From an uncultured Gammaproteobacteria bacterium (lineage in GTDB: Bacteria; Patescibacteriota; Microgenomatia; UBA8517), in contig CAZVJU010000006.1 of the NCBI GenBank assembly GCA_964627195.1, positions 6,200-59,541 on the forward strand: a DNA stretch of 53,342 nt, in the 5' to 3' direction. Position 1 is the stretch's first letter. The number at the start of each line of letters is the position of its first letter. The position numbers and the translations under genes are program-made. Of the stretch, positions 10,714 to 27,023 are shown piece after piece. The notes below the pieces were generated by a model that saw only the letters and a program-made list of their open reading frames with translations, was not told the origin of the DNA and searched no databases.

Positions 10714-10953
10714 ATGAATTTAAGTGAAACATTAGAATCTGTAGATAAATTTTATATCGTCTTTGCAGCAATTCTTATCCTTTTGGCTGTAATGGTTATA
10801 TTCTCTTTTCGTGGGCTCTTTTCAGCTTATCTGACGGCATATGAAATCGGTCAGAAAGACTTGGGAAATAGCGTAAGAATAGATAAAGGTAACATGGAAG
10901 AAGCTGATAAATGGGTGTCAAATAAAGAAACCTTACCATTAGAAATTAGATGA
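10714..10953 (+). CDS. Small membrane protein upstream of pilin
   Basis: One TM helix; ATGA overlap with pilin gene. Confidence 0.55.
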   Translation: MNLSETLESVDKFYIVFAAILILLAVMVIFSFRGLFSAYLTAYEIGQKDLGNSVRIDKGNMEEADKWVSNKETLPLEIR

Positions 10954-11435
10954 TGAAAAATAATAAGATTGTTCTTGCTGTTAAACGGGGTTTTACATTG
11001 ATCGAGCTTCTGGTTGTTATAGCCATTTTGGGAATTTTGTCGACTGTTGTGGTTGTAGCAGTTAATCCGGCACGACAGCTTGCCAAAGCTCGAGATGTCC
11101 AAAGGGAAACCGATCTGATAGGGATTATGTCGGCAATCCTGCAATATTCTTCGGAACATAGCGGATCTTTGCCTGATACAGACGGTGATCCGGATATTAG
11201 TAATTTCCCCGGCGCAGCTACCTGTATGGGTTCGGATGCGGGTTGTTTTGACCTCGCGAATTCAGGCGATGTAGGAGATGAAATTGTTCCTGTTTATTTG
11301 GTTGAAATACCGGCCGATCCGCAAGCGGATGATCCAGTGGGAAACACAGAGTATACGATATATGTAGATGTAAATGGTCGACTCCATGCCGCAGCCATAG
11401 GCGAAATTAACAATCCGATTACGGTAGATAGATAG
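10950..11435 (+). CDS. Type IV major pilin-like protein
   Basis: RG|FTLIELLVVIAILGIL, NP..QL.KARD..R, cysteine pair, IP.DP. Confidence 0.92.
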   Translation: MMKNNKIVLAVKRGFTLIELLVVIAILGILSTVVVVAVNPARQLAKARDVQRETDLIGIMSAILQYSSEHSGSLPDTDGDPDISNFPGAATCMGSDAGCFDLANSGDVGDEIVPVYLVEIPADPQADDPVGNTEYTIYVDVNGRLHAAAIGEINNPITVDR

Positions 11436-11492
11436 TTTTAAAAAGTTTGTCTTCAAATTAGCCCTATTATGAAATCATGGTAAAATCGGATT

Positions 11493-11831
11493 ATGGATTT
11501 TATTGACAAAAAATTAACACTAAAAGAAATTTTACATCTGCGCAATAAATATGGCGTTTATATGAAGCTTACAATTGACGTTGAAAACAGATGGGTTATT
11601 GTCGGAGGAGAATTGCATGCTGACGGCGAAAAGTTGTTGCTTGAGAAAGGAAGTAAACAAAAAGATATTTGGGGCGGGGGGATTAATTTTTTGGATAAGG
11701 AAGTAGATACAACAGCAGTTCTCAATATTCGACCACGATTGGATAACGACAATCTAGAAATATTGGATTCAGAAATCCGCAAAAAATTTTATGATATTAT
11801 AAAAAAGTTTTTTGAAAAATTATGGCACTAG
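11493..11831 (+). CDS. DUF5674-like protein
   Basis: K..IDVE....VGGELHAD.E..LL..GS.Q..IWGG, NIRPR..N. Confidence 0.75.
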   Translation: MDFIDKKLTLKEILHLRNKYGVYMKLTIDVENRWVIVGGELHADGEKLLLEKGSKQKDIWGGGINFLDKEVDTTAVLNIRPRLDNDNLEILDSEIRKKFYDIIKKFFEKLWH

Positions 11832-12082
11832 ATAAATACGATAATGTTTCTGATGCCGTTGCCGATCTTTATCGTGCGTCCTACTATTTGGCTAAAAAAT
11901 CAAAAGATGTTGGGATATTGTTTTTATTAAAATCAAAGAAAAGGTTAGGGGAAAAGTTAACTTTGGACATAAATAAAATAGTAAAAGGAAATGTCCTTAA
12001 CCGTTCTTATGACTATTATTATTGGGCTGAAAAGGTTCTTGATGAGTACAAAAGGTTAAAAATGATTTTGTCTTCGAATTAG
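11822..12082 (+). CDS. Hypothetical helical protein, partner of DUF5674 gene
   Basis: Overlaps upstream gene; its last codons LSSN* are supplied by repeat A copy 2. Confidence 0.65.
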   Translation: MALDKYDNVSDAVADLYRASYYLAKKSKDVGILFLLKSKKRLGEKLTLDINKIVKGNVLNRSYDYYYWAEKVLDEYKRLKMILSSN

Positions 12083-12126
12083 CCTTAGAGTAAAATTGGT
12101 CACTATTCACCAGAAGAAATGTAATT

Positions 12127-12774
12127 ATGGTAAAGAAATCATTTACTGAACTTACGAAAATAGAGCGGAGCGTTTTAGACAAACTTGATACCCCTACAAA
12201 AATTCAAAAGTTTATTGACGAAAAAATTACCTATGATCCGGTGAAAGAAGATAGAAGTGTCAGGGAAGTAATTAGGGATAAAAAAGCCGAGTGTTACAAC
12301 GGAGCGATTTTCGCGGTAGCGTGTTTATTCCATAACGGCTATAAAGCATCGATCATTGAACTTCTCGCCCGGGATGACGAGGAGCACATTTTATGTGCCT
12401 ATCAAGTCAATGGAAGATATGGGTCAATTGCCCAAAGTAAATTCTTAGGCCTTAAAGGGCGAAACCCCATTTATAAAACTCTGCATGATTTGGTAGTGAG
12501 CTACATGGAATTTTATTTTGCGTTTGACGGTAGGTATACTCTCTTATCACATACCAAACTTCTTCCCCTTTCTAAATATCACAACAAATGGTTTTCCGAC
12601 AGCGGCGTAGTTAGGAAAATGGCAAAAGATTTGCGTGAGTCAAAACATGTAAACCTAATCGGTCCGGAAGACTCATTTTCTTACGTGTCTTACGAGCGGT
12701 TTTGGAAAGAGATTTTGGTTTTGCCGAAGGGAATAACACTTTCCAAAGATTATCTTCCCCGACCGAAGAAATAA
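12127..12774 (+). CDS. Transglutaminase-like hypothetical protein
   Basis: L.TP.KIQ.F, C..GA.FA, D..H, YG.I..S.F.GL..R.P pattern. Confidence 0.6.
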   Translation: MVKKSFTELTKIERSVLDKLDTPTKIQKFIDEKITYDPVKEDRSVREVIRDKKAECYNGAIFAVACLFHNGYKASIIELLARDDEEHILCAYQVNGRYGSIAQSKFLGLKGRNPIYKTLHDLVVSYMEFYFAFDGRYTLLSHTKLLPLSKYHNKWFSDSGVVRKMAKDLRESKHVNLIGPEDSFSYVSYERFWKEILVLPKGITLSKDYLPRPKK

Positions 12775-12845
12775 AAAGTACAGCAATTAAGTAGTGGGTT
12801 TCCGAATTTGTCCGCAAATTATATCTGGAGTAGAATATTGAAAGA

Positions 12846-13391
12846 ATGTCTGTAAGTATCACATATTTTGTTCATGGAACAACAATTGATAATGAAAAAG
12901 GGATTTCCTCGGGTTGGTCGGATACTGAACTTTCAGAGTTGGGTAAAAAACAGTCGAGAGATTTAGGAGAAAAAACTAAGGATAAAAAATTTGATGCTGT
13001 GTTTTGTTCTGATTTAAAAAGAGCAGTGGATTCTGCAAATATTACTTTCGGCGGAAGTTTTAAAGTTATTCAGGACCAAAGACTTCGCGAGTGTAACTAT
13101 GGAGATTTGAATGGTAACCCTTCGGAAATTGTTGATCCGCTGCAGGAAAAAAATATTATAAATAAATTTCCCAATGGCGAAAGTTATGAAAACGTAAAGG
13201 AAAGAATTCAAGATTTTTTGACTTTCCTGAAAAAGAATTATGACGGGAAATCTGTCGGAATTGTTGCCCATAAAGCACCTCAACTAGCACTGGATGTTTT
13301 AGTAAAAGGCAAAACTTGGGAGGAAGCTTTTGCCGAGGACTGGCGGAAGAAAAAAGCCTGGCAACCTGGGTGGGACTATGTTCTCGAATAA
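12846..13391 (+). CDS. Histidine phosphatase (phosphoglycerate mutase) family protein
   Basis: HG.T..N, SDLKRA, RLRECNYG, PNGES, VAH motifs. Confidence 0.9.
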   Translation: MSVSITYFVHGTTIDNEKGISSGWSDTELSELGKKQSRDLGEKTKDKKFDAVFCSDLKRAVDSANITFGGSFKVIQDQRLRECNYGDLNGNPSEIVDPLQEKNIINKFPNGESYENVKERIQDFLTFLKKNYDGKSVGIVAHKAPQLALDVLVKGKTWEEAFAEDWRKKKAWQPGWDYVLE

Positions 13392-13425
13392 TTTGCCTTC
13401 AAATTTACTCCGGAGTGATTATAGC

Positions 13426-13462
13426 TTGACAATATCTACATGAAGTATATACTGAGTATATA
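13426..13462 (+). promoter_or_regulatory. Own promoter and operator of the TA cassette
   Basis: TTGACA (13426)-16 nt-TATACT (13448), overlapped by palindrome TATATACT-G-AGTATATA. Confidence 0.7.
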
Positions 13463-13758
13463 TGAGTACAGCTGTTATAAATATCAAAACTGATGTGAAG
13501 ATAAAAAGCCAGGCACAGAAAATTGCTTCAGATTTAGGTTTTAGCCTTAGTGCTTTAATCAATGGTTATCTTAACCAGCTAATTAAAACCAAGACGGTTC
13601 ATTTTTCCGCTACGGAAGAAATTCCCAGCGAATTTATGATACAAGCTCTTAGAGAGTCGGAAGAAGATAGAAAGAAGAAAAGATTTAAGTCTTTTGATTC
13701 CGCTGATAAGGCCTTAGGATATTTAGATAAAATAATTAATGAAGGTAAAAAGAATTGA
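13462..13758 (+). CDS. RelB/DinJ family antitoxin
   Basis: INIKTD..IK..A..IA..LG.SLS..IN RHH-like N-terminus; overlaps toxin gene. Confidence 0.85.
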   Translation: MSTAVINIKTDVKIKSQAQKIASDLGFSLSALINGYLNQLIKTKTVHFSATEEIPSEFMIQALRESEEDRKKKRFKSFDSADKALGYLDKIINEGKKN

Positions 13759-14011
13759 TTTTTCGAAGAGGTTTGAAAAAGATTTAAAGAAGGCCCCGGT
13801 AAAAATTAGAAAAGCTTTCAGAGGAAGAATCGAAATATATCTTACGGATAAATTTAATCCCATTTTGAATAATCACGCGTTGACTGGCAGGCTTGAGGGT
13901 TATAGGAGCATTAATGTAACAGGCGATTGGAGAGCTATTTTTAGAGAGTTAGAGAGCGGAGAAATTGTTTATTTTGACTTTTTGGGTACACACAGCCAAC
14001 TTTATAGATAG
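13739..14011 (+). CDS. RelE/YafQ family mRNA interferase toxin
   Basis: F.KDLKK, NHAL.G...GYRSI.VTGD.R, GTHSQLY C-terminus. Confidence 0.9.
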   Translation: MKVKRIDFSKRFEKDLKKAPVKIRKAFRGRIEIYLTDKFNPILNNHALTGRLEGYRSINVTGDWRAIFRELESGEIVYFDFLGTHSQLYR

Positions 14012-14144
14012 TTCTATTAAAGAATAATTTATCTTCAAACCGAATCGGAAATTAATGATAGAAATCATAGTAGAATAACGTAAAGGCACGAGATTCTGAT
14101 ACACAGTCTTGAGAGTAAAAAACGGTGATTTGTAGATTTAAGAT

Positions 14145-14421
14145 ATGGCAAAAGTAGCAGGCAAATATTGGTTTAAGGCCAAGAATTATGGCTGGGGATG
14201 GTATCCGGCAACTTGGCAAGGATGGTTAATTTTGGCAGGATTTATTTATCTTAATTATTGGTAATTATCAAGAAATTGATTCTCAGTCCCATTCCATAAG
14301 TGACACTTTACTAAACTTCATACCCCGGGTGTTGGTGTTGACTCTTCTTTTAATCGCAGTTTACTTCCTGACCGGCGAGAAACCGGAATGGCGATGGGGT
14401 GGGAAGAAAATTAAAATGTAA
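14145..14421 (+). pseudogene. Frameshifted small membrane protein (WFKAK.YGWGW.P...GEKP.WRWG type)
   Basis: MAKVAGKYWFKAKNYGWGWYPATWQGW...YW* continues in the +1 frame as NYQEIDSQSHS...TGEKPEWRWGGKKIKM*; 277 nt, one extra base near 14261. Confidence 0.8.
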
Positions 14422-14471
14422 AACCATAGGATTGTCTTCGAATTAGCTCCGGAGTAGAATTATTTTAAGCT

Positions 14472-14578
14472 AATTCAAGAAGTCCACCGCTTTAGACGTG
14501 GATGAATTGAATCATTGAAAATTCATTCGCCGAAGGCGAATGTAGCTCGAAGGACCACGGCATAAGAGGTGGACTTCT
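14472..14578. mobile_element. ~100-bp MITE/PATE-like palindromic element
   Basis: 11-bp inverted repeats AGAAGTCCACC (14478) and GGTGGACTTCT (14568); inner hairpin CATTCGCC-GAA-GGCGAATG; CCAC...GTGG hairpins at both ends. Confidence 0.55.
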
Positions 14579-15519
14579 ATCTGAGGTTGTTAACCTCGCT
14601 GCGGTATAGAACTTACACTATTTTGAAAAAGAGAAAAAAATCAATACCAACTTTAGTGGGAATTCTACTGCTGATGATTGGAATTTTATCGGGTCTCCTT
14701 CTTATTTCAAGAAGACAAATTTTTGTGCAAAAGGCAGCGCCAAATACAACACTTAATCTTATTCCCAGCACGAATAATCTTAAAGTGGGTGATAGTTTTA
14801 GTGTGTTTGTGAACATAGATACGGGCAGTAATACTTTCATTGGGGCAGAACTTTATTTAGATATCGAGCCGGTGTCACTACTGGAAATTACTGACATAAC
14901 AAGCGGTGATTTCCTTCCAGTTACCGGCGAAGAAGTTAAATCGATAGACAATTCCGTAGGTAAAATAGAGTATTTGGTTTACCTCATACCCGGGAGTGAG
15001 ATTACTCCGTTAAAAGGCAAAGGAACTTTGGCGGTGATTTGGGCAAAAGTCTTGAAAGAAGGGTCGGTAACTATCAGTTTTAACCCAAAAAGCCAGACTG
15101 CTACAAGTGATGAGGATGCGGGTCAGAATTTGTTGGCAAGTGCAGAATCTCTACAGATTTTGATAAATAGCGATAGAGAGTTAACTGAAACCTCGGCTCC
15201 TATTTCTTTAACACCAACCGGGATTTCAGAAAAGAAAATTTCGCCGACACTAACTCCCGGAAAAAGTGAGTTACCAAAGGTTAAAAAGTCGCCTACTACT
15301 GTACCGACTGACTTTCCATCGCCGGTCGTTTTTGACGAACCGGGCCGCGAGGATGAAGAAAACAGTAGCTGCGTGGATTTCGGCTATTTGTTTTTAGTGA
15401 TTAGAAGATTGGGAAGAGATGTGAATCCCGGTACTGATGGAGATTTTACAAACGACGGACAAGTAAGTTTCACTGACTTATTTGCAGTTTTAGGCGAGAT
15501 TAAACTTAGGTGTAACTAG
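14569..15519 (+). CDS. Membrane-anchored cohesin-domain protein with Pro/Thr linker and dockerin-like C-terminus (true start probably TTG near 14623)
   Basis: TM helix, VGD.FSV.V.IDT..GAEL, G.GTLA.I, GDFTNDGQVSFTDL EF-hand-like loop. Confidence 0.7.
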   Translation: MDFYLRLLTSLRYRTYTILKKRKKSIPTLVGILLLMIGILSGLLLISRRQIFVQKAAPNTTLNLIPSTNNLKVGDSFSVFVNIDTGSNTFIGAELYLDIEPVSLLEITDITSGDFLPVTGEEVKSIDNSVGKIEYLVYLIPGSEITPLKGKGTLAVIWAKVLKEGSVTISFNPKSQTATSDEDAGQNLLASAESLQILINSDRELTETSAPISLTPTGISEKKISPTLTPGKSELPKVKKSPTTVPTDFPSPVVFDEPGREDEENSSCVDFGYLFLVIRRLGRDVNPGTDGDFTNDGQVSFTDLFAVLGEIKLRCN

Positions 15520-15566
15520 CCGCTCGGTTTTCTTGTCTTCAAATTATCTCCGGAGTAGAATGTGAT

Positions 15567-16349
15567 TTGATGAAAGTTAAAGTTGCTGTTTTGCAGTACG
15601 ATGTTCCCGAGGAGTCTGATACTTCTTTTAAAAAATTAAACGAGATGATTTTGCAGGCTGGGTGGGCTGGAGCGAGACTAATAGTTGCTCCTGAAACTGC
15701 TGTCGGAGAAGTTGGGGAATTGAAAGAAAAAGACATAGATTATTTTTCAAGACTCGCAGAAATTGCAAAGAAACACAGCGTTTTTCTAGCTACAAGTTTT
15801 TACACAAAAAAAGACGGTAAATTTTATAACCAAGGCCATATTATTTCCCCTGAGGGTAAATCTGTTGTATCGCACAGAAAAATGTATCCGGCAAAACCGG
15901 AGATAGAAAATATCGGTGTAGTTGCTGGAAGTTCTTTAGAAGTCAAGAAAACAGAAATCGGTAAACTTGGTATGCTTATTTGTAAAGATGGATTTAATAA
16001 ATATTCCCACTTTTTGTACGACAAATTTAATTCGTTGGGGATAGAAATAATTTGTATTCCGACCTGGTCTATTGGTTGGAAGGAGATGAACACTGAAGAA
16101 TATGTAAAAGCACTGTATGTGTACGGAGCTTTTACAAGTCGATCATTTATTCTTATGTCGGGTAATTTGAATATGTCTTTTAACTCATACGGGAGGTCCC
16201 TAATAGTTAGTCCGATAAAGGGTATTTTGAAAGAGGGAAGTAGTAATCACAAAGAAATTCTTTATGAAGAATTGGATTTAGATGAAGTTGCTAAAGCCCG
16301 AAAGTTTGATTCCTGGTGGCAGCCGAAAAAGAAAATTGACATCGAATAA
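15567..16349 (+). CDS. Carbon-nitrogen hydrolase (nitrilase superfamily); start probably ATG 15570
   Basis: E-K-C triad motifs: VAPE, HRKM, GMLICKD; G.S.IVSP. Confidence 0.9.
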   Translation: MMKVKVAVLQYDVPEESDTSFKKLNEMILQAGWAGARLIVAPETAVGEVGELKEKDIDYFSRLAEIAKKHSVFLATSFYTKKDGKFYNQGHIISPEGKSVVSHRKMYPAKPEIENIGVVAGSSLEVKKTEIGKLGMLICKDGFNKYSHFLYDKFNSLGIEIICIPTWSIGWKEMNTEEYVKALYVYGAFTSRSFILMSGNLNMSFNSYGRSLIVSPIKGILKEGSSNHKEILYEELDLDEVAKARKFDSWWQPKKKIDIE

Positions 16350-16386
16350 TTTGTCTTCAAATTAGCTTCAGAGTAAAATTGTTACA

Positions 16387-16848
16387 ATGAAATATCAAGT
16401 CCCGGAGGTGGGTGAGATTGAAATTAAGACAATTATACTCGACCTTAATGGCACACTTTCTGTCAATGGAAAAATTCCTGACGGGGTAAAAGAGAGATTA
16501 AAAAAACTAAAGGACTTGGGTATAAAGGTTATTTTACTTACGGGTGATCAACGAGGAACTGCTGCAGATTTATGCAAAGAATATGGAATAGACTTTGTTC
16601 GTACAAAGAATGGCAAAGAAAAAGAAGCAGCAATGAAATCTTTTGATTCAGAAACAACCGCCGCAATTGGGAATGCAAGGATCGATATCGGAACTTTTAA
16701 ACACGCGAAAGTGTCTCTTGCTACATTGCAATCTGAAGGTGTTCACATGGGGATTATTTGTAACGTAGATGTGGTTGTTCCATCCATAAATGACGCGTTG
16801 GATTTCTTTATAGACTCCGATATTTTTTGCGTAACTTTGCGAAAATAA
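16387..16848 (+). CDS. HAD-family soluble P-type ATPase-like protein
   Basis: LDLNGTL, LTGD..GT, AIGN..ID motifs. Confidence 0.85.
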   Translation: MKYQVPEVGEIEIKTIILDLNGTLSVNGKIPDGVKERLKKLKDLGIKVILLTGDQRGTAADLCKEYGIDFVRTKNGKEKEAAMKSFDSETTAAIGNARIDIGTFKHAKVSLATLQSEGVHMGIICNVDVVVPSINDALDFFIDSDIFCVTLRK

Positions 16849-16893
16849 TTCTCTTCAGATTAGTACTTCTAAAGAGTGTAAAATTTAAAAAAT

Positions 16894-17250
16894 ATGAGTG
16901 AACAGACATCACCTGTTGATGATTATTTGTTGCCGTTAGTTCAAAGAGTTTTAAGAGTTTTTCCTGCATGGAAAGTATTTGCTTTTCAAGGAGCTCTAAC
17001 TGCCGTTCTCGTTGGGTGGGGTATTGACTATACTTTGGCAGATGGTTTGGTGTATCTATCCTTTAACTTTTTATTCTTGTGGTTACTTTACAGGAAATTC
17101 GGAAGGGTCAGGGATACGAAGATTTTTGTTTACGGATTTGCTGGGATAAGTGTTTTGCTACAGCTTCTGATATTCTTTCCGGGAATTGAGAGTGCAATAG
17201 GAGAAGTTTATTTTAGGATTTATTGTTTGATAACAAAAGTGTATTGTTAG
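16894..17250 (+). CDS. Hypothetical membrane protein
   Basis: Three hydrophobic segments; fills one repeat-delimited cassette. Confidence 0.65.
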   Translation: MSEQTSPVDDYLLPLVQRVLRVFPAWKVFAFQGALTAVLVGWGIDYTLADGLVYLSFNFLFLWLLYRKFGRVRDTKIFVYGFAGISVLLQLLIFFPGIESAIGEVYFRIYCLITKVYC

Positions 17251-17309
17251 TATAATCGAAAAATATAAATTTGTCTTCAAATCAGCTCAAAGTTTTAATA
17301 TGTTTGGCG

Positions 17310-18005
17310 CTATCGATACAATTTGGTTTGCAACATTTTAATCTCTCGTATGAGTTTCTTGGAAATTACTTTAGGATAGTTTTTGAGCGGTTTTAGCTCG
17401 CTTCCAATCCCTTGTGTTTCAGGGATATCTTTTTTACCACCTTTATTTTGCTTGAGAATACCTTGCCGGCTCTGCCGCGAGGATGAACGAGCATAAGTAC
17501 TGCTATCTGAAAGATACTTCGCTGCTCTGCCGCGATGCAGTTCATTTTGAAACTTTTGCCATGTGTTGTATCCGTCTTCAGTTAGGTGCATTGACCCTGT
17601 ACAGCTATCACTTTTGCACAAACAGTTATGACTGCAGGGGTTGCAAGTCATTTTGGGAGGAAGTAAATATGAAATAGTTAATTCAGATCCTTTCCTAATG
17701 TTTTTTAATGCAAAAACAATAGTGTGGTTTCTAAATTTAGTTATCCAGCAATTCGGAGAGCAGGAATGATTAAGGAGATAAATGCCGGGCTTTTTTAAAT
17801 CGGGGTAAATACCGGTCTCGTCGTCGTAATACATTAAGTATAAGTTTTTCTTTTCCTTCTCAAAATCGACATCTTTTAACTGAACCACTTTGCCCACGTA
17901 ATCACCAATCACTACTCCTTGCCTAATTGGTTTATTGGCAAAAACCCCTCTTCCTTTATTCTTTGTTTTTTTAATTTCCCAATAAACTTCGGGCAATAAA
18001 AACAT
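17310..18005 (-). CDS. SET-domain protein with post-SET cysteines
   Basis: KGRGVFA, NHSCSPN, ELTISY, CLC....C.G motifs. Confidence 0.9.
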   Translation of the reverse strand: MFLLPEVYWEIKKTKNKGRGVFANKPIRQGVVIGDYVGKVVQLKDVDFEKEKKNLYLMYYDDETGIYPDLKKPGIYLLNHSCSPNCWITKFRNHTIVFALKNIRKGSELTISYLLPPKMTCNPCSHNCLCKSDSCTGSMHLTEDGYNTWQKFQNELHRGRAAKYLSDSSTYARSSSRQSRQGILKQNKGGKKDIPETQGIGSELKPLKNYPKVISKKLIREIKMLQTKLYR

Positions 18006-18141
18006 ATGCTAATTTACCATACATTTTCAATTATAGTTCTGATTTGTCTTCAAATTAGCTCTGGTGGGAATACTCTATTTCCATTTATATGTAAGGCTTG
18101 TATAGTAGTGAGAAGTTTGGATCTTTAACACACTTATTTTA

Positions 18142-18948
18142 ATGGATCAATTTATTCTGCATTACCCTGTGCTATCTGCTCTTATAGCTGGCATATTTGC
18201 CTGGGGATTAACGGCGCTTGGTGCGGCAGGCGTATTTATTTTTCGGACAGTTAGCCAAAAGTTATTGGATTCAATGCTTGGGTTTGCTGCGGGCGTTATG
18301 ATTGCAGCGAGCTTTTGGTCATTGCTTGCTCCGTCAATAGAGCTTAGTGAGCAGATCGGTGTGGTAAAGTGGATTCCGCCAGTCATTGGGTTTTTAGTTG
18401 GAGGGTTTTTTTTGTGGCTTGTTGACAAGATTTTACCCCATTTGAATATCGGACAATCAAAATCTCATCCCGAAGGGATACCTACCAATTGGCATACAAC
18501 TGTTCTGCTTTTTTTAGCCATAACATTTCATAATTTTCCTGAAGGATTAGCAGTCGGTGTTGCTTTTGGAGCAGCTGCGGCTGGTATACCGGGGGCCAGT
18601 GCTGCCGCTGCAATGGCCTTAGCGATAGGTATCGGAATACAGAATTTTCCCGAGGGGTTTGCTGTCTCAATGCCATTTAGACGGGTAGGAGTAACGAAGC
18701 TTAAAAGTTTCCTCTTTGGACAGGGTTCAGCGCTTATTGAACCGATTGCAGCGGTAGTAGGCGCGGTAGGGGTATTGGCTATGCGTCCGCTTTTACCTTA
18801 TGCACTGGCATTTGCAGCAGGAGCGATGATTTATGTTTCGGTTGAAGAAATAATTCCTGAGTCGCAGAAAAATGCGACTGATGTTGCAACGATTGGCGCA
18901 ATGCTGGGATTTGCAATAATGATGGTTCTGGATGTTGCTCTCGGGTAG
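18142..18948 (+). CDS. ZIP family metal transporter (GufA/ZupT type)
   Basis: GFAAGVM, HNFPEG, QNFPEG, AFAAGAMIYV..EEIIPE. Confidence 0.93.
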   Translation: MDQFILHYPVLSALIAGIFAWGLTALGAAGVFIFRTVSQKLLDSMLGFAAGVMIAASFWSLLAPSIELSEQIGVVKWIPPVIGFLVGGFFLWLVDKILPHLNIGQSKSHPEGIPTNWHTTVLLFLAITFHNFPEGLAVGVAFGAAAAGIPGASAAAAMALAIGIGIQNFPEGFAVSMPFRRVGVTKLKSFLFGQGSALIEPIAAVVGAVGVLAMRPLLPYALAFAAGAMIYVSVEEIIPESQKNATDVATIGAMLGFAIMMVLDVALG

Positions 18949-18988
18949 TCTTAATCTTCAATTGATTCTTCCGAAGTTTTTCCAGATG

Positions 18989-20419
18989 TCAGCTTCCCGA
19001 CTGCGGTTCAATCCAAGAATTTCCGTCCGCCTCGAGAAGTTCATCTGCCTCTTTTGGTCCCCAGGAATCCGGTTGATAAAGAGAAACCTTCCTTTTCATT
19101 TCCAAAAGTGCATCCACGAATCTCCAGCCCTCTTGCACTTCTTGCGCGTCGGTGAAAAAAGTCTGATCTCCTGAGAATGCGTCATAGAAAAGCCTCTCAT
19201 ATGCATCGGGTATTTCCAAATTAGAGGCGGGGTAAGAAAAATACATTGGATACGAATTTAAAAGCATTTTATGTCCAGGTCTTTTAATAAGAACATCAAG
19301 ACCAATGCCTTCATCCGGCTGAACTCTATAAGTTAGTACATTAGGTTTATCTCCCAAATCAAATTTTGAAAAAAGTCTATCTTCTGCAACTTTAAAAACT
19401 ATTTTTATTTCGGTTACCCATCTAACCAATTTTTTGCCGGCACGAATATAAATTGGAACCCCTCTCCAACGACTGTTTCGAACTTCTGTTTTTAATGCAA
19501 AAAAAGTTTCTGTTTGGGAATTTTTGTCTATATTCTCTTCGTAAAGATAGCCGTTGTATTGGCCAAAGACAACTTTGTCAGGGAACGGTTTTAGAACTTT
19601 TAGGATTTTTACTCTTTCTGCCGTTACCGCCTCGTTTGAAAACTGTCTCGGCGGATCCATTGTCGATAGGGCAAGCATTTGCAATAAGTGATTTTGGCCG
19701 ACATCTCTTAATGCTCCGATTGAATCGTAATATCTACCCCGCTCTCCGATGCCGAAATCCTCAGATGCCGTTATTTGGATTTGGCTGACGTGTTTTCTAT
19801 TCATCAAATGCTCGAAAATGCCATTATTAAAACGAAAAATTAATAGGTTTTGCAGAGTTTCCTTTCCCAAATAGTGATCGAGGCGAAAAATCTGGTCTTC
19901 CGAAAAATATTTTCGAAGTAAAGAGTCTAGGACATTAGCGCTGGGTAAATCTCGGCCGATTGGTTTTTCAATGATAAGCCGAGTCCAGCCGTTTTTCCTG
20001 GCATTTAGTTTAGAGTGGGCAATTGATTTAAAAATCTTGTCGTAAAGGTCAGGGTAAGTTGCCAGATAAAAGATGATGTTAGAAAAAGTGTTGGTTTCAA
20101 TAATCTTTTTCAGCGACGAATATACTTTTTTGGCGCTTTTTTTATCGTTAACATCACCTTGTAAGTAGAGCATATTTCTAAGGAGCTTGTCAGCAGTTTC
20201 AGGATCAATTGCGCGGTGGTGGTGTCGGTTTTTTCTGGCTAAGACTTCGAGGATGAAGTTTCTGAATTCACTTTTTGAATAAGGTTTCCTGCCGATTCCG
20301 GCAACTATGAACTTTGCCGGAAGAAGGTTTTTGTCAAAAAGATCATAAAGCACGGGGATAAGCTTTATTTGCGACAGGTTCCCTGTAATTCCAAAAACAA
20401 CCAATGCAAAAGAATCCAT
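18989..20419 (-). CDS. zwf: Glucose-6-phosphate 1-dehydrogenase
   Basis: FG.TGNL, IIEKP.G.D, RLDHYLGKE, DVGQNHLLQ, RWRGVP...RAGK. Confidence 0.95.
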   Translation of the reverse strand: MDSFALVVFGITGNLSQIKLIPVLYDLFDKNLLPAKFIVAGIGRKPYSKSEFRNFILEVLARKNRHHHRAIDPETADKLLRNMLYLQGDVNDKKSAKKVYSSLKKIIETNTFSNIIFYLATYPDLYDKIFKSIAHSKLNARKNGWTRLIIEKPIGRDLPSANVLDSLLRKYFSEDQIFRLDHYLGKETLQNLLIFRFNNGIFEHLMNRKHVSQIQITASEDFGIGERGRYYDSIGALRDVGQNHLLQMLALSTMDPPRQFSNEAVTAERVKILKVLKPFPDKVVFGQYNGYLYEENIDKNSQTETFFALKTEVRNSRWRGVPIYIRAGKKLVRWVTEIKIVFKVAEDRLFSKFDLGDKPNVLTYRVQPDEGIGLDVLIKRPGHKMLLNSYPMYFSYPASNLEIPDAYERLFYDAFSGDQTFFTDAQEVQEGWRFVDALLEMKRKVSLYQPDSWGPKEADELLEADGNSWIEPQSGS

Positions 20420-20529
20420 GTAGCTTAAAAAGTATCATACTCTTTGACCGCTATATTTCAATGCCGTATTTTTTAAACTCTGAGTCAATTCGTTAGCAAA
20501 AATAGAAGAGAATTTATTATAATAATGCT

Positions 20530-21054
20530 ATGAGTGAATCTAAACATCTCGATGAATTGGGGGAAATTAATTTAGCATCGGAATGTTATGTGCTTAAAGA
20601 CGGGAAAGTCTTGATGTTTAAAAGAAGCGGTACGGCAAGTAAGTTTCCCGGCTTTTGGATTGGGCCGGGAGGACATATAGATCATGACGAAGACGCTCTT
20701 CTTGCAGCCGTGCGGGAGATTGAAGAGGAAGCAGGAATAAAGGTTGATCTTGATGATATTAAATTAAAAGCAATTGCACTTCATCACCATCTTGATAGGA
20801 GAGAGGTGTGGGTCTCTTTTGTTTTCCTTGCGACCATTAAAGAAAATCAGGTTGAGAAAAAAGAGGACGTAGAGGGAAAGGCAAAGTGGATTCCGTTAGA
20901 GGAACTTCTGGTAATGGACAACGTGTTTCCTCCATCAAAGTATTATTTTGACCATGTTTTGAATGATAAAAAGGGAATACTTTATACTAATATTCAATGG
21001 GATAACGCCCAACTAGTTAAAGTCCTCAATCAACGAGTAGATAAAAACGGTTAA
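20530..21054 (+). CDS. NUDIX hydrolase
   Basis: PGG.....E....AA.REIEEEAG Nudix box. Confidence 0.9.
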   Translation: MSESKHLDELGEINLASECYVLKDGKVLMFKRSGTASKFPGFWIGPGGHIDHDEDALLAAVREIEEEAGIKVDLDDIKLKAIALHHHLDRREVWVSFVFLATIKENQVEKKEDVEGKAKWIPLEELLVMDNVFPPSKYYFDHVLNDKKGILYTNIQWDNAQLVKVLNQRVDKNG

Positions 21055-21123
21055 GACCTCATTTCCTCCACTCCAGTCATTTTTTAACCAATTAAGTAAT
21101 TAAGATGTACAATTAATTAATTC

Positions 21124-21798
21124 ATGCACAATATATCTAAGATACTAAAATTCTTAATTTTTATTATTCTTTACCTATCATCTTTGGTTAGTATAGGCTA
21201 TATTTTCAGTATATTTTTCCATGATTTAGGAGTGTTTATAAGTTTTATACTTGTATTTTTAGCAATTTTTTGGAGTAGCAGGTATCTTAGAAAAAGAAAT
21301 CCGGATAAGTTCATACAAAAATCATCCAAATTTTCAATAGCATATTTTTTTCTAACCGTTTCTTTAAGTTTCTTTTTACTTAGTCTGGTCTTTGATTCCG
21401 TTAAAATTGACTGGACTCGTTTTGTAAACGAAAACACTGCTTATAAAGGTATCTTGGATGCAACAGTTCTCCCTATATTTATTTTGTTTCCGGCATTCGC
21501 TACTATCTATCCTGTCTGGAGGCTTTATAGCCGTAAAAAGGGGTTATTGGTAAATACTGTTATTGCGTTTTTATATGTTTCGTTTTGGATATTGATGCTT
21601 TATTTATTTGCCAGGAATATTTTCGGTCTAGAAAGTCTTTTACATACTGTTGGGGATACTATTAACTATTATTACGAAATTATTGCTGCGATTCTGATAG
21701 TGCCTTTGCTAAAGTTTACTGTCGGATTCCTTCCGCTAGGGTGGTTTTATGAACTTTTTGTTGGAACAGTTGCACCTCAAAGTTTATCGAAGGGATAG
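21124..21798 (+). CDS. Hypothetical polytopic membrane protein
   Basis: About 6 TM segments; very AT-rich. Confidence 0.7.
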   Translation: MHNISKILKFLIFIILYLSSLVSIGYIFSIFFHDLGVFISFILVFLAIFWSSRYLRKRNPDKFIQKSSKFSIAYFFLTVSLSFFLLSLVFDSVKIDWTRFVNENTAYKGILDATVLPIFILFPAFATIYPVWRLYSRKKGLLVNTVIAFLYVSFWILMLYLFARNIFGLESLLHTVGDTINYYYEIIAAILIVPLLKFTVGFLPLGWFYELFVGTVAPQSLSKG

Positions 21799-21896
21799 AA
21801 AGTACTCTTTAGCAAGCAGAGTTAGATTGCAATTCAAGACCCCATTTCTTCCCTTCTTTCGCAGACAGGCACGGCTTCTGTTAAAATATTAAAGTT

Positions 21897-22337
21897 ATGA
21901 AGATTATTAAATATTCCGATTCATACCGGAAGAAAGTTAAAGATTTTGTAATTTCGGTTCATGAAGAATTTGGTTTTCCTTACAATTATGAGTTGGATTA
22001 CGATTTAGACGACCCTGACAAATACTACAAAGATCAGAGAGGAGTCTTTTATCTTCTTCTGGATGACAGAAATCCTGTAGGGGACAGTAGCAGTTAAGAA
22101 TTTAGGAAATAAAAAAGCAGAGCTAAAAAGGTTATATCTTATGAAAGAGTATAGGGGAAAAGGATTGGGACGTAGACTTTTGACTAAGGCCTTGGATTTT
22201 TGTAGAGAAAAAGGATTTAAACAAGTGGTATTTGATACAAACAAAAAACAAATAACAGCCCGAAGTTATATAAGAAAAATGGATTTAAAATCGATCGAGT
22301 TATTAAAAACACACTTTTTATGTTGAAGGATTTCTAA
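21897..22337 (+). pseudogene. GNAT acetyltransferase with two frameshifts
   Basis: Extra G in GTAGGGGACA (~22081) and a missing base near 22261; joined product reads ...PVGTVAVK...AELKRLYL..EYRGKGLG...KLYKKNGF. Confidence 0.85.
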
Positions 22338-22373
22338 ACCTATTTCCTCCCTGCTGGCGCAGGCAAGCGCGCC

Positions 22374-22790
22374 TTATTTTCCTTTCAGCTTTTTGAGCCA
22401 GAGGTTTTTGAAGAAAGGGAGAGTGAGAGTAGAAAGTAAAAAGCCGACTGAGGGAACGATTGCGTTTAGCCAAGGATTTTTAATTTTTATGGCGTTTAAA
22501 TAAAGTCCAATCGAAATGTAAGTAAAAAGAATTAATAAAAGTCTTCTGGTGTAGCTTATCTCCCAGGCTTTATCCGCCTCAACCCTTTTATCCCCCTTCG
22601 CGAAATACAACAAGCGTAAGCTTATCAATGAAAGCGAAGAATATTTCGCTTCGGAGGGATTTTGCTCCCGACGAAGCGAGGGGAGAAGCTACCGCGAGCG
22701 CCTGCCTGCGCAGGCAGGTAAGCTCGAGGGAGATTCATTTCTCGACTCAATTTCTTTAATTCTTTTTTCCAGTTCCGGCAACTTTTCCAT
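22374..22790 (-). pseudogene. Small membrane protein (IE.RNKRVEADKAWE type) interrupted by a 147-bp insertion
   Basis: MEKLPELEKRIKEIESRN joins KRVEADKAWEIS once 22590-22736 is removed, giving 89 aa. Confidence 0.8.
22590..22736. mobile_element. 147-bp structured GC-rich insertion (MITE-like)
   Basis: Pairing ends (ATCTCCCTCG and CGAAGGGGGAT on minus strand), palindrome CCTGCCTGCGCAGGCAGG, hairpin TCGCTTCG..GGGA/TCCC..CGAAGCGA, possible AT duplication. Confidence 0.7.
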
Positions 22791-22876
22791 GTTTCAATTT
22801 TACCACTTAGTATACCCAATTCGAAACCATTTCCTCTGGATATTGAATTTTTTTAAAAGCTTGCTAGCATTTAGTT

Positions 22877-23113
22877 ATGGTACTCTACGAAATTATTGGT
22901 TGGACTGGGACTTTGGCAATTCTTTTGGCATATTTTCTTGTTTCCTCAAAAAAGATTTCTCCCGACGACAAGAACTACCAATTATTAAATCTGATTGGAA
23001 CAATTGGTATCATTATAAATTCGGCAGTTCATGGAGCAATTCCTTCTGTTGGACTCAATGTTGTCTGGCTTCTTATTGCTATCTATGGATTACTAAAAGT
23101 GGTGAAGAAGTAG
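22877..23113 (+). CDS. Small 3-TM protein (CBU_0592-like)
   Basis: IGW.G...IL.AY, YQLLNL.G, LN.VW..I motifs. Confidence 0.8.
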   Translation: MVLYEIIGWTGTLAILLAYFLVSSKKISPDDKNYQLLNLIGTIGIIINSAVHGAIPSVGLNVVWLLIAIYGLLKVVKK

Positions 23114-23171
23114 ATTCCTTAAAATCCTCTTCTGAACTTGAACAAGTTTATATAAGTCCTATAATTACGGT

Positions 23172-23603
23172 ATGGTAACTGTCGAACTTTCCAAAGCATC
23201 TGTAATAAGTTCGCAAGAAATTTCGCTCACGAATTATCAAACTTATAGAAGTGAGGGAGGGATTTTGAATTCTGAATCCTACGGGATGCTGGAAAGTTTT
23301 ACCGGGTTGAAGAATCGTTCCTTAAGAGTAAGTACATTTAATATCCCAAGAAGCCAAGCTATTTCTATGGCAACTTTTGCAAAAATAGAACTGGTTGAAG
23401 AGGAAATCGGGATGTACGTTCTTCTCAGAACGCTTCCACCAAGTAAAGAGAGTACCTCTGAAGAATTAACTTTAAACCCAGAACAGTTATCAGACCAAGT
23501 TCTTTTGGCTGAGATTCTTCGTTTTACTAAGTCTACTCAACGGGAAGAATTTATAAAAAAGTATCCAAATATTTTTTCTCCGGTAGGGCAGGTACACGAC
23601 TAG
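23172..23603 (+). CDS. Hypothetical protein
   Basis: 143-aa ORF preceded by TATAAT. Confidence 0.6.
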   Translation: MVTVELSKASVISSQEISLTNYQTYRSEGGILNSESYGMLESFTGLKNRSLRVSTFNIPRSQAISMATFAKIELVEEEIGMYVLLRTLPPSKESTSEELTLNPEQLSDQVLLAEILRFTKSTQREEFIKKYPNIFSPVGQVHD

Positions 23604-23673
23604 TAAAATAGGCTTTACAGAAATAGTTTTAGGAGATATCTCAGTTTAAATTTTCTAAATGATAGAATTGGCT

Positions 23674-24327
23674 ATGGCAACTAAAGATAAGTTTATTAGA
23701 CTAAACATAGCAATTGTTACTCCCAAAAATATTGCAGAAGAAGTAATCAGGATTAGTCAGAAATTTTAAGAGCTTGGCGACACAAGCTTTATACTTAATG
23801 GAGAGGATTTTCACCCTCATATTACTTGTTATTCTCCAGAATTTCCTACTAAGAATATAAACAAGATTATTGAGGAAGTAAGTTTGATTGCTAAAGGATA
23901 CAAAAGCTTTGAAGTCAAAATGAATAAGTTGCAGATTATTAAGGAGGGTGATTCCTATGGTGTGATAGTATCTTTCAGGAAAAGTAAAGAGATTGATAAA
24001 TTACATAGATTAATAATAAAAAAACTTAATCCTTTGAGAGAAGGTCATATACGTGAGATATACAAAGATCCGGATTACATCAAAAGGTTTTCAAAAGGCA
24101 AACGTAGTTTAATAAAAAAAATACTGTTTGAAGTAGGGTATCCTAGAGCTCTAGATGCATACGACCCACATATTTCAATAACAAGATTCGGATCTCCTAT
24201 TTGGAGAAAGGATATAGAATTGCCGCGATTTAATTTTAGAAGAATGTGGATAAAGGAAATTGGAATTTTTACTATGGGTGAGTATGGTACTTGCAGAAAA
24301 CTGATCCATAAATTTACATTGAAATAG
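23674..24327 (+). pseudogene. 2H-phosphoesterase (2'-5' RNA ligase-like) gene with internal nonsense codon
   Basis: ATG 23674 is in frame with ORF 23884; single TAA at 23767-23769; both HxT/S motifs present (PHITC, PHISI). Confidence 0.8.
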
Positions 24328-24371
24328 AATTTCTCGCTGTACCCACTTCCTCCGCAACTTCGCAATTTTTT

Positions 24372-24656
24372 CTAGGGCAATAACAGAGTAAATAGCCATA
24401 AGGGTAGAGAAAGGAGAGTGAGAACACTCAATTTCCCCACACTCTTTCTTTTTAAGACGATGAAAGATCCTATTATTCCAAATAAATCTAAGGGATAGGT
24501 TACATAATTACAAACAGGTTGACACCATAGATGGGATCGGTGGAATAAATTTGTAAACAAGTTATCAATTCTGAAAGTTTGTAATACATCCCGTATTAAA
24601 TGATAGGTTGAGAAAATTAAAATGAGAATAAACAGATATCGTAAATACTTAGTCAC
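24372..24656 (-). CDS. Small membrane protein (probable start GTG near 24656)
   Basis: YHLIRDVLQ...H.WC...C hydrophobic ORF; the longer called N-terminus runs through repeat B and the next intergenic region. Confidence 0.6.
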   Translation of the reverse strand: MTKYLRYLFILILIFSTYHLIRDVLQTFRIDNLFTNLFHRSHLWCQPVCNYVTYPLDLFGIIGSFIVLKRKSVGKLSVLTLLSLPLWLFTLLLP

Positions 24657-24779
24657 TAGTTTAGTATATAAGAAAACGAGCCCATCTCCTCTGGGACTAA
24701 CAGAGATTTTTTTAAAAAGATTTTGTATAATCGCACTAGATTTTAATTTAAAAATGAAGGAGGTGAATTTACAAAAAAA

Positions 24780-24977
24780 ATGACAGGAATTGAGCGAACA
24801 GATCAAACTGATGCAATCCAGAGAGCAGAAGCATCTATAGCCGAATTAAGAGAGGATCTTCAAGTACCAGACGCTCACTTAGAGATATCTGTTGGTAGGG
24901 ATAGTGTTACGGCTGATATCGTAAGTGACTTACCGGATGCTGGAAATCTGGCAAAGGGTGTTACGAGGCCGATATAA
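24780..24977 (+). CDS. Hypothetical 65-aa protein
   Basis: Strong SD AAGGAGGTGA upstream. Confidence 0.55.
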   Translation: MTGIERTDQTDAIQRAEASIAELREDLQVPDAHLEISVGRDSVTADIVSDLPDAGNLAKGVTRPI

Positions 24978-25021
24978 ATCATTAGTTAGTTCTCGAGATT
25001 TTCGATTACGCTAAAGTAAAT

Positions 25022-25516
25022 ATGGAAAGTGAAAGAAACTTTGAAGAGTCTTTTTATAAGGCACCTTATTCTGAAGGTTGTCCCGGCTGCAATAGGATAG
25101 AACCGCAACCCGAAGGATTAATAATTGTTTATGAAGACGATAAATTTAGAGTTCATCAAGACTATGCATTACCAATTCCGGGAATGATGGTAGTTGAATC
25201 TAAAAGGCATATAAAAAGTATTTCTGATTTTACACCTGAGGAATTAAATAGGTACTCTTTAGTGCTAAGGAAAGTAAGAGACGCCTTGGGTAGCATAGGA
25301 GTAGAGAATGCGACCCTGATACAAGAAGAAAAAAGTTCACATTTTCATGCCTGGTTTTTACCGATATATCCGTGGATGGCGAATGTGACTAGCGGAAAAT
25401 TAAGGAACATTCAGGAAATATTTGATTACGCTAAAGGGAACATGGTTACCGATCAACATATTTCTGAAGTGGAAAAAGCAACTAAGGCTATAAAAGAGTA
25501 TATGGAATCGGAGTGA
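25022..25516 (+). CDS. HIT-family hydrolase
   Basis: CPGC, PIPG..VV..KRH, HFHAW motifs. Confidence 0.85.
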   Translation: MESERNFEESFYKAPYSEGCPGCNRIEPQPEGLIIVYEDDKFRVHQDYALPIPGMMVVESKRHIKSISDFTPEELNRYSLVLRKVRDALGSIGVENATLIQEEKSSHFHAWFLPIYPWMANVTSGKLRNIQEIFDYAKGNMVTDQHISEVEKATKAIKEYMESE

Positions 25517-25567
25517 AAGTAATTTTCTCGCAAGTAAATCTGAAGCAAAGTTTTACCAATATAACTC

Positions 25568-25620
25568 CGGTTCTCGCTCTTCCCGAAAAACCCGTCCCTC
25601 CCGGCTCCCGAGCAGGCTAA
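25568..25620 (+). repeat. Orphan gene-tail repeat C, copy 1 (VLALPEKPVPPGSRAG*)
   Basis: 49/53 identical to 26808-26860. Confidence 0.9.
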
Positions 25621-25697
25621 GACAATCAATGGATATCTTCTGCATCAAAAAGTACGGTTACAGGTCCTAACCAGTTTTTGCTGGTAGCAGCCAGCAG

Positions 25698-25731
25698 TCC
25701 TTGTCTACAAGGGTATACATTGTTAATCTAA
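25698..25731 (-). repeat. Repeat D, copy 1 (upstream leader plus MYTLVDK start)
   Basis: 29/34 identical to 26663-26696. Confidence 0.7.
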
Positions 25732-25870
25732 TGTACTGAGTAATATTTTGAAATATTAGTAATAATTAAAAAGAAGGATTATTATTAAAAAGTAATATAA
25801 GAAAGTAATTTCAATTTGTTACTGCTATTGAAAACGAAGTTATATATAAAATAATACAGTAGTTAAGGGG

Positions 25871-26569
25871 GTGAGAAGTTTGAAAAAAATACTAATTCTT
25901 ACAATTAGCTTGTTTTTTCTGTTCCAGTTCTTTTTTGTAGTTGAAGCGAAAACACAGAATGACAAAGGAAGTGGTAATAAATCTGAGGATTATGTATCAC
26001 CGAGTGAAGCAGCAAAAGCAAAAACCGCATCTGCAAAACTAAATAGAATTTTGGATGTTACTGAAGATCCTGAGGTTGAAGAAGAAGTTGGTGATCTGGT
26101 TGAAGAACAAGAGCAAGTTGAGGAAAGATCTCAAGAGGTTTTAGACGAAACGGAAGACCGTCCAGCAGCCGTTAAATTCTTAATTGGACCTGATTACAAA
26201 AATTTAGGTCAATTAAGAAAAGAGGTTGTTCAGACACGCAATAATATTAAGAAACTTGAAAAAATTCAGGAAAAAGTCGGCGAAGAGGAACAACCCGCAA
26301 TTGAAGAAGCCCTTTTGGAATTGAAAGAATCAGCAAGCAGTTTGCAGGCAAATATTTATACAAAACTGTCCGATTTTTCTCTTTTTGGATGGCTTTTTAA
26401 GTGGTTAAATGGTTTTACACCTCCGGAAGATGAAGTTACACCAACGACAACGGTAACACCGACGATTACGGGAGAGTTAACTGCGACACCTACAGTGGTA
26501 GAGGCAACTTTGACTCCTACCGGAACACTTAGTCCGACGGAAACACCTACACTAACTCCAACGATATAG
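25871..26569 (+). CDS. Secreted coiled-coil protein with Thr/Pro tail
   Basis: Signal peptide, F.IGPDYK.L..L motif, FSLFGWL, TPT repeats. Confidence 0.75.
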   Translation: MRSLKKILILTISLFFLFQFFFVVEAKTQNDKGSGNKSEDYVSPSEAAKAKTASAKLNRILDVTEDPEVEEEVGDLVEEQEQVEERSQEVLDETEDRPAAVKFLIGPDYKNLGQLRKEVVQTRNNIKKLEKIQEKVGEEEQPAIEEALLELKESASSLQANIYTKLSDFSLFGWLFKWLNGFTPPEDEVTPTTTVTPTITGELTATPTVVEATLTPTGTLSPTETPTLTPTI

Positions 26570-26662
26570 TTTTTGAACAAAGTCGTTGTGAAATATTGGA
26601 GTGTTTGTTGTAGTTTTTTATTGGTATTTTTTTGTTATTACTAACAGCATTTTACTATTTTT

Positions 26663-26696
26663 TCCTTTTCCACAGGGATATACATTGTTAAACTAA
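26663..26696 (-). repeat. Repeat D, copy 2 (upstream leader plus MYIPVEK start)
   Basis: 29/34 identical to 25698-25731. Confidence 0.7.
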
Positions 26697-26807
26697 AAAT
26701 TGCAGGAGCTGGTGGACTTTCTAGGAAACTGGTCAATCAAAAATCTTCATATAAATAAAAAATATTTTCTCTGATAAATTTAAAGTAAGCATTTCCAAAT
26801 AAAAGTG

Positions 26808-26860
26808 CGGTTCTTGCTCTTCCCGAAAAACCCATCCCTCCCGGCTCCCGTGCAGGGTAA
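26808..26860 (+). repeat. Orphan gene-tail repeat C, copy 2 (VLALPEKPIPPGSRAG*)
   Basis: 49/53 identical to 25568-25620; followed by hairpin AGAAATCACAT...ATGTGATTTCT (26861-26900). Confidence 0.9.
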
Positions 26861-27023
26861 AGAAATCACATTTTGAAATTGAACTAAAGATGTGATTTCT
26901 ATGGCATATGTCACGTTATTTATAGTTCTAAATCAAAGTGTGACATCTGTAAGTAATTAGGTTTGGGGAAAATTTGGGTATTGCATTTTTAAAAATCTGG
27001 CCTTTAAATAAACTTATGGGGTT

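Follow-up and report, generated by a model that had tools for sequence, protein, structure and literature searches.

Integrons, and the clusters of attC sites known as CALIN, hold mostly single-gene units that point in one direction and stop at the recombination site, with toxin-antitoxin, GNAT and NUDIX genes among their cargo; the hallmarks of the system are the integrase IntI, the attI site and attC sites of 55-141 nt with R and L boxes. In the composite islands named SCC and ECC, the repeats are gene ends. These islands are the work of Ccr serine recombinases, and their direct repeats bound stacked cargo (PMC6222049). In the promoter-stem-loop (PeSL) cassettes of T4-type phages, promoter repeats lie between non-essential genes, which are shuffled by inter-repeat recombination, with no integrase identified (PMC2839356, PMC4122927). 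Tycheposons are described as tRNA-seeded islands (10.1101/2020.12.28.424599), and hotspots of horizontal gene transfer (HGT) without an integrase are reported to be renewed by recombination at flanking core genes (PMC5635113). Here we analyse a 53,342-nt stretch, hereafter the window, of contig CAZVJU010000006.1 (C6) from a groundwater bacterium of the Patescibacteriota, whose assembled genome is 1.22 Mb long and 85% complete. Positions 11436-25000 of the window are a polar gene-cassette array made of mostly one- or two-gene units, which are bounded first by copies of one short repeat, A, and then by copies of another, B (Table 1).

Like integron arrays, this array and its counterparts elsewhere consist of mobile, mostly single-gene units with a stop codon at the site and with similar cargo, but there is no IntI or attI, the sites measure 20-36 nt and are of two types, and a promoter-like element lies in the site itself. 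The likeness to PeSL cassettes resides in short repeats of promoter-like sequence geometry between cassette genes, with no enzyme beside the arrays; unlike PeSL cassettes, the arrays occupy a bacterial chromosome, A has no strong terminator hairpin, and there are two repeat types in fixed order, one of them tRNA-like. PeSL cassettes also form mini-circles between their repeats; for the arrays, contigs from four runs, which drop rare variants, gave no well-supported joint at A. SCC and ECC islands share with the window direct repeats that bound stacked cargo, and also a real gene tail serving as a repeat, which is the case for a third repeat, C, only, and there without its anchor gene; at the arrays, in contrast, there is neither recombinase nor anchor gene, A and B are not gene tails, and several loci are involved. 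As in tycheposons, cargo has accreted around repeats that resemble tRNA 3' ends (B), yet no array contains a tRNA gene or an integrase, and tycheposons have no counterpart of A. Finally, the fixed loci, the variable genes, the lack of a mobile element (at a site between glycosyltransferase genes and metG) and a host competent by gene content recall the integrase-free hotspots, from which the arrays differ in that internal conserved repeats mark the breakpoints.

The arrays work in the manner of integrons and PeSL cassettes yet lack features by which each of these is recognised, and it is the linked A-then-B design that is new. In the open-access literature (subscription papers were outside the scope of the search) we found no report of such arrays in Patescibacteria or of A-then-B polarity with gene-free junctions, which integrons, PeSL cassettes and tandem attachment scars do not predict. 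Nearly all Patescibacteria are competent by gene content, yet they carry few classical mobile elements.

Array architecture and distribution

A preliminary description of this DNA had recognised three repeats, A, B and C, in the window; all of them exist, and all lie on the plus strand. It had taken A and B for unrelated delimiters, but they are linked on the same strand, with A before B. The cores of nine clear A copies start at 11447, 12068, 12808, 13393, 14432, 15533, 16351, 17271 and 18044, two decayed copies lie near 14029 and 16850, and six B cores start at 21058, 21841, 22339, 22826, 24342 and 24681. A second A-then-B array in the same genome (G000:C13:440-13340) has 6 A and at least 10 B copies, and begins with an ~85%-identical paralogue of the window's SET-domain cassette. 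Contigs from four public runs (one of which may be the source sample) match the window and span several A sites, so the window array is no assembly artefact.

De-duplication by 60-nt identity, with overlapping duplicates on the same contig and three loci with in-gene hits excluded, gave 120 distinct A copies from 36 loci and 72 B copies. Among these loci, which are kin and not independent, every A precedes every B in 19 of the 22 that carry both (399 of 414 pairs), and A was never found on the opposite strand. Gene-free A-B junctions, with linkers of 18-22 nt, occur at six loci, and clustered B copies are present only on contigs that also bear A arrays. At a threshold of 15 bits or more, 15 A sites fall within the two arrays of this genome and none in the other 2.4 Mb (both strands), and at 17 bits or more 14 B sites fall inside the arrays and four outside; since the weight matrices were trained on copies from the window and its relatives, the counts inside the arrays are partly circular.

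With at most one mismatch allowed, A was detected in 21 of the 124 further genomes that represent the family, in some of them as chance singles, and in none of 14 genomes from the order's two other families. Among named genomes, the long A pattern is shared by Candidatus Woesebacteria alone, so this bacterium is presumed to be of that lineage. In the rest of the class, the B 14-mer is present in 3 and the right half of A in 2 of 400 other genomes, with no array in the 3-kb loci. Viral contigs were considered as a source of the repeats and rejected: A gave 0 and 1 hits, its long form (see below) 0, B 3, 4 and 0, and the right half of A 21, and the hits inspected were all in open reading frames (ORFs) or unrelated tRNAs.

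Four kinds of site carry arrays: after a pilin gene, in front of pilB, in front of an nrdR-like gene, and in the interval that separates a pair of membrane glycosyltransferase genes from a glycosyltransferase/metG block; pilB, nrdR-like, glycosyltransferase and metG are names that we assume from sequence likeness. In 5 of the 18 relatives read, the last of these sites is empty, and in others it is occupied by variable genes with neither A nor B. The homologies at the ends of the cassettes had been thought specific to their locus; the same A and B recur at all four kinds of site, and twice within this genome. One ORF occupies 107 of the 182 array intervals (median 709 nt), cassettes are shuffled between loci, and five cassette families are common to the A and B parts.

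Anatomy of the two repeats

Repeat A is 36 nt long. Behind its 16-nt core, which contains a 7-bp dyad, come a spacer and a -10-like box, in the arrangement TTGTCT-17-TARAAT. The box is at offset 23-28 in 43 of the 120 copies and at any other offset in at most five, and 20 of 33 box-bearing copies with a downstream plus-strand gene have an ATG at offset 33-39. Judged by its sequence, A has the geometry of a sigma-70 promoter, with the ATG spacing that would be expected for leaderless transcripts. This promoter-like reading rests on the fixed position of the box, because a general promoter scan of the region (52 vs 45 ± 7 in shuffles) did not rise above shuffles. No terminator-like site was seen at any A copy in the window scan. 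Across many genera, each position of the A core is conserved at 88-100%, with the shared cassette genes only 70-85% alike.

In what we call the long form, a hairpin of 19 nt is inserted in the middle of the A core. Of 18 hits to this hairpin, from 7 of 139 genomes, 14 are within or beside arrays, after many different genes, and two others are in tRNA-like T-arms, where the hairpin stands directly before the T-loop of tRNA-like 3' ends (L217 ~12390 and L218 ~10170; G022:C37 and G022:C8). The notion that A is an ancestral attC was rejected, the long form being short A plus a hairpin that is also found in those two T-arms, as was the notion that A is the upstream promoter of tRNA-Ser, which gave one weak hit among 20 tRNA loci. 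Possible variant sites, with A flanks but a different, C-rich core, are present at L045:10514, L047:4286 and L026:10033.

Repeat B, ~24 nt long, agrees with tRNA-Ser 3' ends at 12-13 of 14 bases and with other tRNAs at no more than 10 of 14, in a comparison of 81 ends of which 46, the Ser ones, had been picked by a B-like pattern. The right half of A is an imperfect inverted repeat of B (11/14, shuffle p ~0.006). No tRNA gene was found inside the arrays in 38 sequences scanned, and no B cluster lies near tRNA-Ser. Elsewhere in this genome (G000:C2), short exact copies of the tRNA 3' end are located 74 and 88 nt downstream of tRNA-Ser(GGA) and tRNA-Ser(CGA).

Gene tails and putative attachment scars

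It had been proposed that all of the repeats are gene tails, scars of events in which transforming DNA recombined at a locus-specific end homology. The observations behind this proposal are in part correct: the ORF at 11822-12082 does end LSSN-stop within A, and the stop codons of three upstream genes do lie in the left arm of A (at 13391, 16349 and 16848). The variants of A are not simply synonymous, however, since copies in the window also read LSANY, LPSNL, LSSNY and LSSNQ; LSSN-stop is present in only five of the nine clear copies there and is kept in 82 of the 120 in the full set. A codon-bias check, which had been suggested as a test, found 21 synonymous changes among 73 codon changes; in the absence of selection the expected share is 22% for all changes and 40% for transitions. 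Substitutions are distributed 17/24/40 over the three codon positions, and the excess at the third comes mostly from the stop codon and from one non-synonymous allele.

Eleven upstream ORFs, from nine gene families, end at the position of A's TAG (eight of them in LSSN), and in three other arrays the ORF 11822 orthologues have their stop codon further upstream. Because nine unrelated families end there and these orthologues end earlier, LSSN-stop represents read-through into the repeat. The left-arm TAA is also present in 9 of 25 A copies whose upstream gene lies on the other strand, and it therefore belongs to the site. As for B, the reading EEMGS-stop is true of one of the six window copies only, and on the opposite strand; over 72 copies there is no third-position excess, the stop is kept in 13 and EEMG in 20. 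No donor gene for an A or B tail was found in this genome or its relatives, and single A-like hits in three relatives were rejected as donors, since they fall within ordinary genes or straddle them. A and B are not gene ends, and the gene-end model holds for C alone.

The two copies of C, at ~25521 and 26761, read VLALPEKP(V/I)PPGSRAG-stop. That C is a gene tail was right, and a donor family could be found, namely an accessory PF01588 tRNA-binding protein: the last 17-19 codons match the best of 120 PF01588 homologues at 14 of 17 residues, with residues further upstream unmatched, and full genes of this subfamily are present in relatives. A true gene-end scar is also seen at a hotspot in another genome (G148:C4, before the glycosyltransferase gene next to metG), where 30 nt of the 3' end of the flanking glycosyltransferase gene are duplicated ~110 nt from the gene. 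Both cases speak for gene-tail scars as such, but as an account of the arrays we regard this explanation as very improbable: A and B have neither donor nor codon signal, unrelated genes read into A, the same repeats recur at many loci, and A and B are linked. Even for C, nothing beyond one 21-nt match was found in any of 60 relatives, and a full gene ending in C is not in this assembly.

The C region reads best as a stack of attachment scars, in which C and a fragment of a comM-family gene are separate from the A/B arrays. We take the Mg-chelatase-annotated target gene of large serine recombinases to be comM. Of the site-specific large serine recombinases, 12.4% are reported to target a gene so annotated (PMC10083194). 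The comM product is described as helping heterologous DNA to integrate, and the gene as one that mobile elements often target (PMC12378983). Extra partial comM copies, corresponding to C-terminal parts, are located at G000:C7:31071-31469 and C43:902-1048, the former beside a serine-recombinase island. When the non-coding arm of C (25519-25552) was compared with inverted A by gapped alignment, copy 1 scored above all 6308 background windows and copy 2 did not, and nhmmer does not rank the match. The coding tail of C (25590, 26830) weakly resembles B (9 bits).

Recombinases and DNA-uptake genes

The claim that no dedicated integrase is involved was borne out in so far as none adjoins the arrays in the window or on C13. 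This genome encodes two Xer-like recombinases, one broken tyrosine recombinase and three serine recombinases, none of them on C6 or C13; PF00589 has no match in the window or on C13, and the tyrosine enzyme on C11 scores below integron-integrase cut-offs. Of ten other array genomes, three have no match to PF00239, and G148, G127 and G097 possess only the usual Xer-like pair of tyrosine recombinases. Neither A nor B was present at any of 24 serine-recombinase loci examined, where the single B hit was tRNA-Ser itself; on the short contig L063, one further serine recombinase and an A pair are 2.8 kb apart. Serine recombinases of the family commonly end in tRNA 3' ends, and no convincing displaced tRNA ends were seen at the far side of 10 recombinase islands. 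In five array genomes, Cas1 and IS110 were absent from all and a reverse transcriptase was present in one. In the L063 recombinase gene (3345-3400, 4870-4920), the upstream leader and the 3' part of the coding sequence form an inverted repeat of ~45 nt, and other recombinases of the family have similar pairs.

As had been described, pil genes and comM are present in the window. RecA and DprA are encoded in all five array genomes, and comEC in 116 of 124 genomes of the family, with or without arrays. The suggested check for an association of arrays with transformation genes is uninformative: almost every genome of the family has comEC, and comM is 24 kb distant from the array. The recA gene of this genome (G000:C9:4956-7388) has an 810-amino-acid frame with an intein-like insertion, which starts with C after the GK of Walker A and ends with HN before TTL.

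Exchange breakpoints and mechanism

Cassettes that are 96-99.8% identical across arrays diverge at A+16 (three comparisons) and at A+11 or A+19 (two comparisons), and shared cassettes begin at A-3, -13 or -20; the crossover position at the A-B junction is based on assemblies. The left flank of A tracks the upstream gene family and the spacer tracks the downstream one. Within genomes, core and spacer alleles are shared more than under permutation (p 0.001-0.05), and one B allele is homogenised, being present in seven of eight copies in G148 and three of three in G014. No hybrid of A core with B right side, or of B core with A right side, was found among the 120 + 72 sites.

It may be that A and B are regulatory modules within an ordinary HGT hotspot. 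Hotspots without mobile elements are well known (PMC5635113), A has promoter geometry, and the main locus is empty in some relatives and filled without A or B in others. Nevertheless, we consider this unlikely, as the breakpoints are inside A itself, 25 of the 113 genes that follow A are on the opposite strand, A is absent elsewhere in the genome, and neither the strict A-before-B order nor the gene-free junctions would be predicted.

A site-specific recombinase acting in trans, either a passing tRNA-targeting large serine recombinase or a housekeeping Xer-type enzyme, would insert and excise the cassettes, with A and B as its live half-sites. We see this as a serious possibility, though short of an even chance. 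It is consistent with the sharp boundaries (17 of 91 upstream stops are at A-1), with the likeness of B to tRNA-Ser ends and its inverted relation to the right half of A, with the family's serine recombinases that end in tRNA 3' ends, including the one near an A pair, and with the resemblance of C and the comM fragment to attachment scars. The spacing in three of the six A-B junctions also corresponds to the hybrid attL/attR geometry of large serine recombinases, with ZD motifs at 11-19 and 16-24 (PMC3783163). The A sites, however, do not keep the core, and lack the conserved TT that such geometry needs. Moreover, A and B are absent from the recombinase loci examined and no array has a tRNA; core-flank hybrids are missing; a fixed crossover is hard to square with the spread of alleles and the 19-nt insertion; and a single integrase logic would hardly yield AAA...BBB. 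In particular, a recombinase site of fixed geometry should tolerate an insertion of 19 nt in its core badly.

The reading that we prefer, tentatively, is that relic attachment arms are reshuffled by short-homology crossover within the repeats, carried out by host machinery on DNA that would enter by transformation. A and B would be the two arms of one attachment-type site (gene-free A-B junctions do exist), probably left behind by a serine-recombinase element. Incoming linear DNA would pair with the chromosome, and double crossovers would gain, lose or swap units while the AAA...BBB order is kept because A would pair only with A and B only with B. The -10 box of A would then start a leaderless transcript of the next gene. 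We favour a homology-type crossover because it explains the polarity, the allele spread, the absence of an enzyme and the fact that the insertion is tolerated, and because PeSL cassettes provide a precedent. Exchange through short homologies had already been proposed; this part fits the breakpoints and the homogenisation of alleles, and the gene-tail, locus-specific part fails for A and B.

A more ambitious version, which we regard as doubtful, is a host-run cassette-exchange platform with A and B as two landing sites that do not cross-react, at which competence and RecA perform double crossovers and the incoming gene is supplied with a promoter. If exchange were indeed run by the host, an array that keeps its polarity while gaining and swapping genes across genera would be a natural cassette-exchange system and an unusual way of collecting genes. 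The defined sites of 20-36 bases and the sharp breakpoints make host recombination and a recombinase in trans directly testable against each other on small substrates.

Several points nonetheless weigh against reshuffling by the host. The invariant A core (16-23 nt) and B (~20 nt) are shorter than the RecA minimum, which only the full 36-nt A reaches; the minimal segment quoted for RecA-mediated transformation is 25-35 bp, and anchored illegitimate recombination uses less (PMC6382021). The conservation of the A core and its 7-bp dyad suggest a binding protein, and homogenisation could also arise if every insertion copied the resident site. The comEC gene was not found in this assembly, which is 85% complete. 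No well-supported excision joint at A was detected in contigs of the same strain from the four runs, which drop rare variants and from which joints with sides of 20-36 bases were left out, and no age gradient or growth point was seen along the arrays. The glycosyltransferase/metG hotspot gains genes also in genomes without A or B. No element bearing A or B together with a recombinase was found at the loci, in viral contigs or in class-wide searches, and the origin step is one that we infer. The transformation step is tempered by a report on two species in which transformation contributed few novel genes (PMC12359135). None of the readings accounts for the first joining of a new gene to the repeat within a few bases of its stop codon.

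Other features of the window

Between the pilin gene and position 26900 the accessory genes are small, and encode DUF5674, transglutaminase-like, histidine phosphatase, RelB/YafQ, cohesin, CN hydrolase, HAD, SET, ZIP, G6PD, NUDIX, GNAT and HIT proteins. No tRNA, Rfam family or recombinase was found in the window.

Table 1 Positions of repeats, cassettes and flanking genes in the window
Feature	Coordinates	Strand	Remarks
Type IV pilin gene	10950-11435	+	Left flank of window array; other arrays have other flanks
A copy 1	11440-11475	+	
Cassette ORF	11822-12082	+	Reads through into A, ends LSSN-stop; orthologues elsewhere stop before A
A copy 2	12061-12096	+	-35 TTGTCT, 17 nt, -10 TAAAAT
A copy 3	12801-12836	+	Core diverged, promoter geometry retained
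A copy 4	13386-13421	+	Stop of upstream gene within left arm
Decayed A copy	14022-14057	+	9 bits
A copy 5	14425-14460	+	Followed by dispersed multi-copy insertion
A copy 6	15526-15561	+	Start codon a few bases past -10 box
A copy 7	16344-16379	+	Nearest consensus; stop of upstream gene within left arm
Decayed A copy	16843-16885	+	Small insertions; stop of upstream gene within left arm
A copy 8	17264-17299	+	
A copy 9	18037-18072	+	Last A
Central unit	18142-21054	.	Last A to first B: ZIP transporter, G6PD (minus strand), NUDIX
B copy 1	21051-21074	+	Like tRNA-Ser 3' end
B copy 2	21834-21857	+	Sole window copy giving EEMGS-stop, on minus strand
B copy 3	22332-22355	+	
B copy 4	22819-22842	+	
B copy 5	24335-24358	+	
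B copy 6	24674-24697	+	
C copy 1	25521-25620	+	~40 non-coding bases, then last 19 codons (25561-25620) of PF01588 tRNA-binding-protein gene
comM fragment	25648-25705	+	Internal part of comM-family gene; 81% to 52224-52281
34-nt direct repeat	25698-25731	+	Begins in end of comM fragment; partner 26663-26696
Partner of 34-nt repeat	26663-26696	+	85%
C copy 2	26761-26860	+	Three synonymous changes and V/I vs copy 1 in coding tail
comM/YifB gene	51225-52757	+	Intact; outside array, 24 kb off

Four different dispersed repeats, similar to miniature inverted-repeat transposable elements or repetitive extragenic palindromes, are inserted at 14463-14580, 17441-17557, 22587-22700 and 26858-26950, and each has copies on many contigs. 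In the B part, the cassette genes at 21897-22326 and 23665-24327 (GNAT and a 2'-5' ligase-like gene) appear fragmented. Further downstream (31003-36167), an RHS protein with a Tox-REase-9 tip is followed by a DUF4304 gene, an arrangement that resembles an inter-bacterial toxin-immunity pair.

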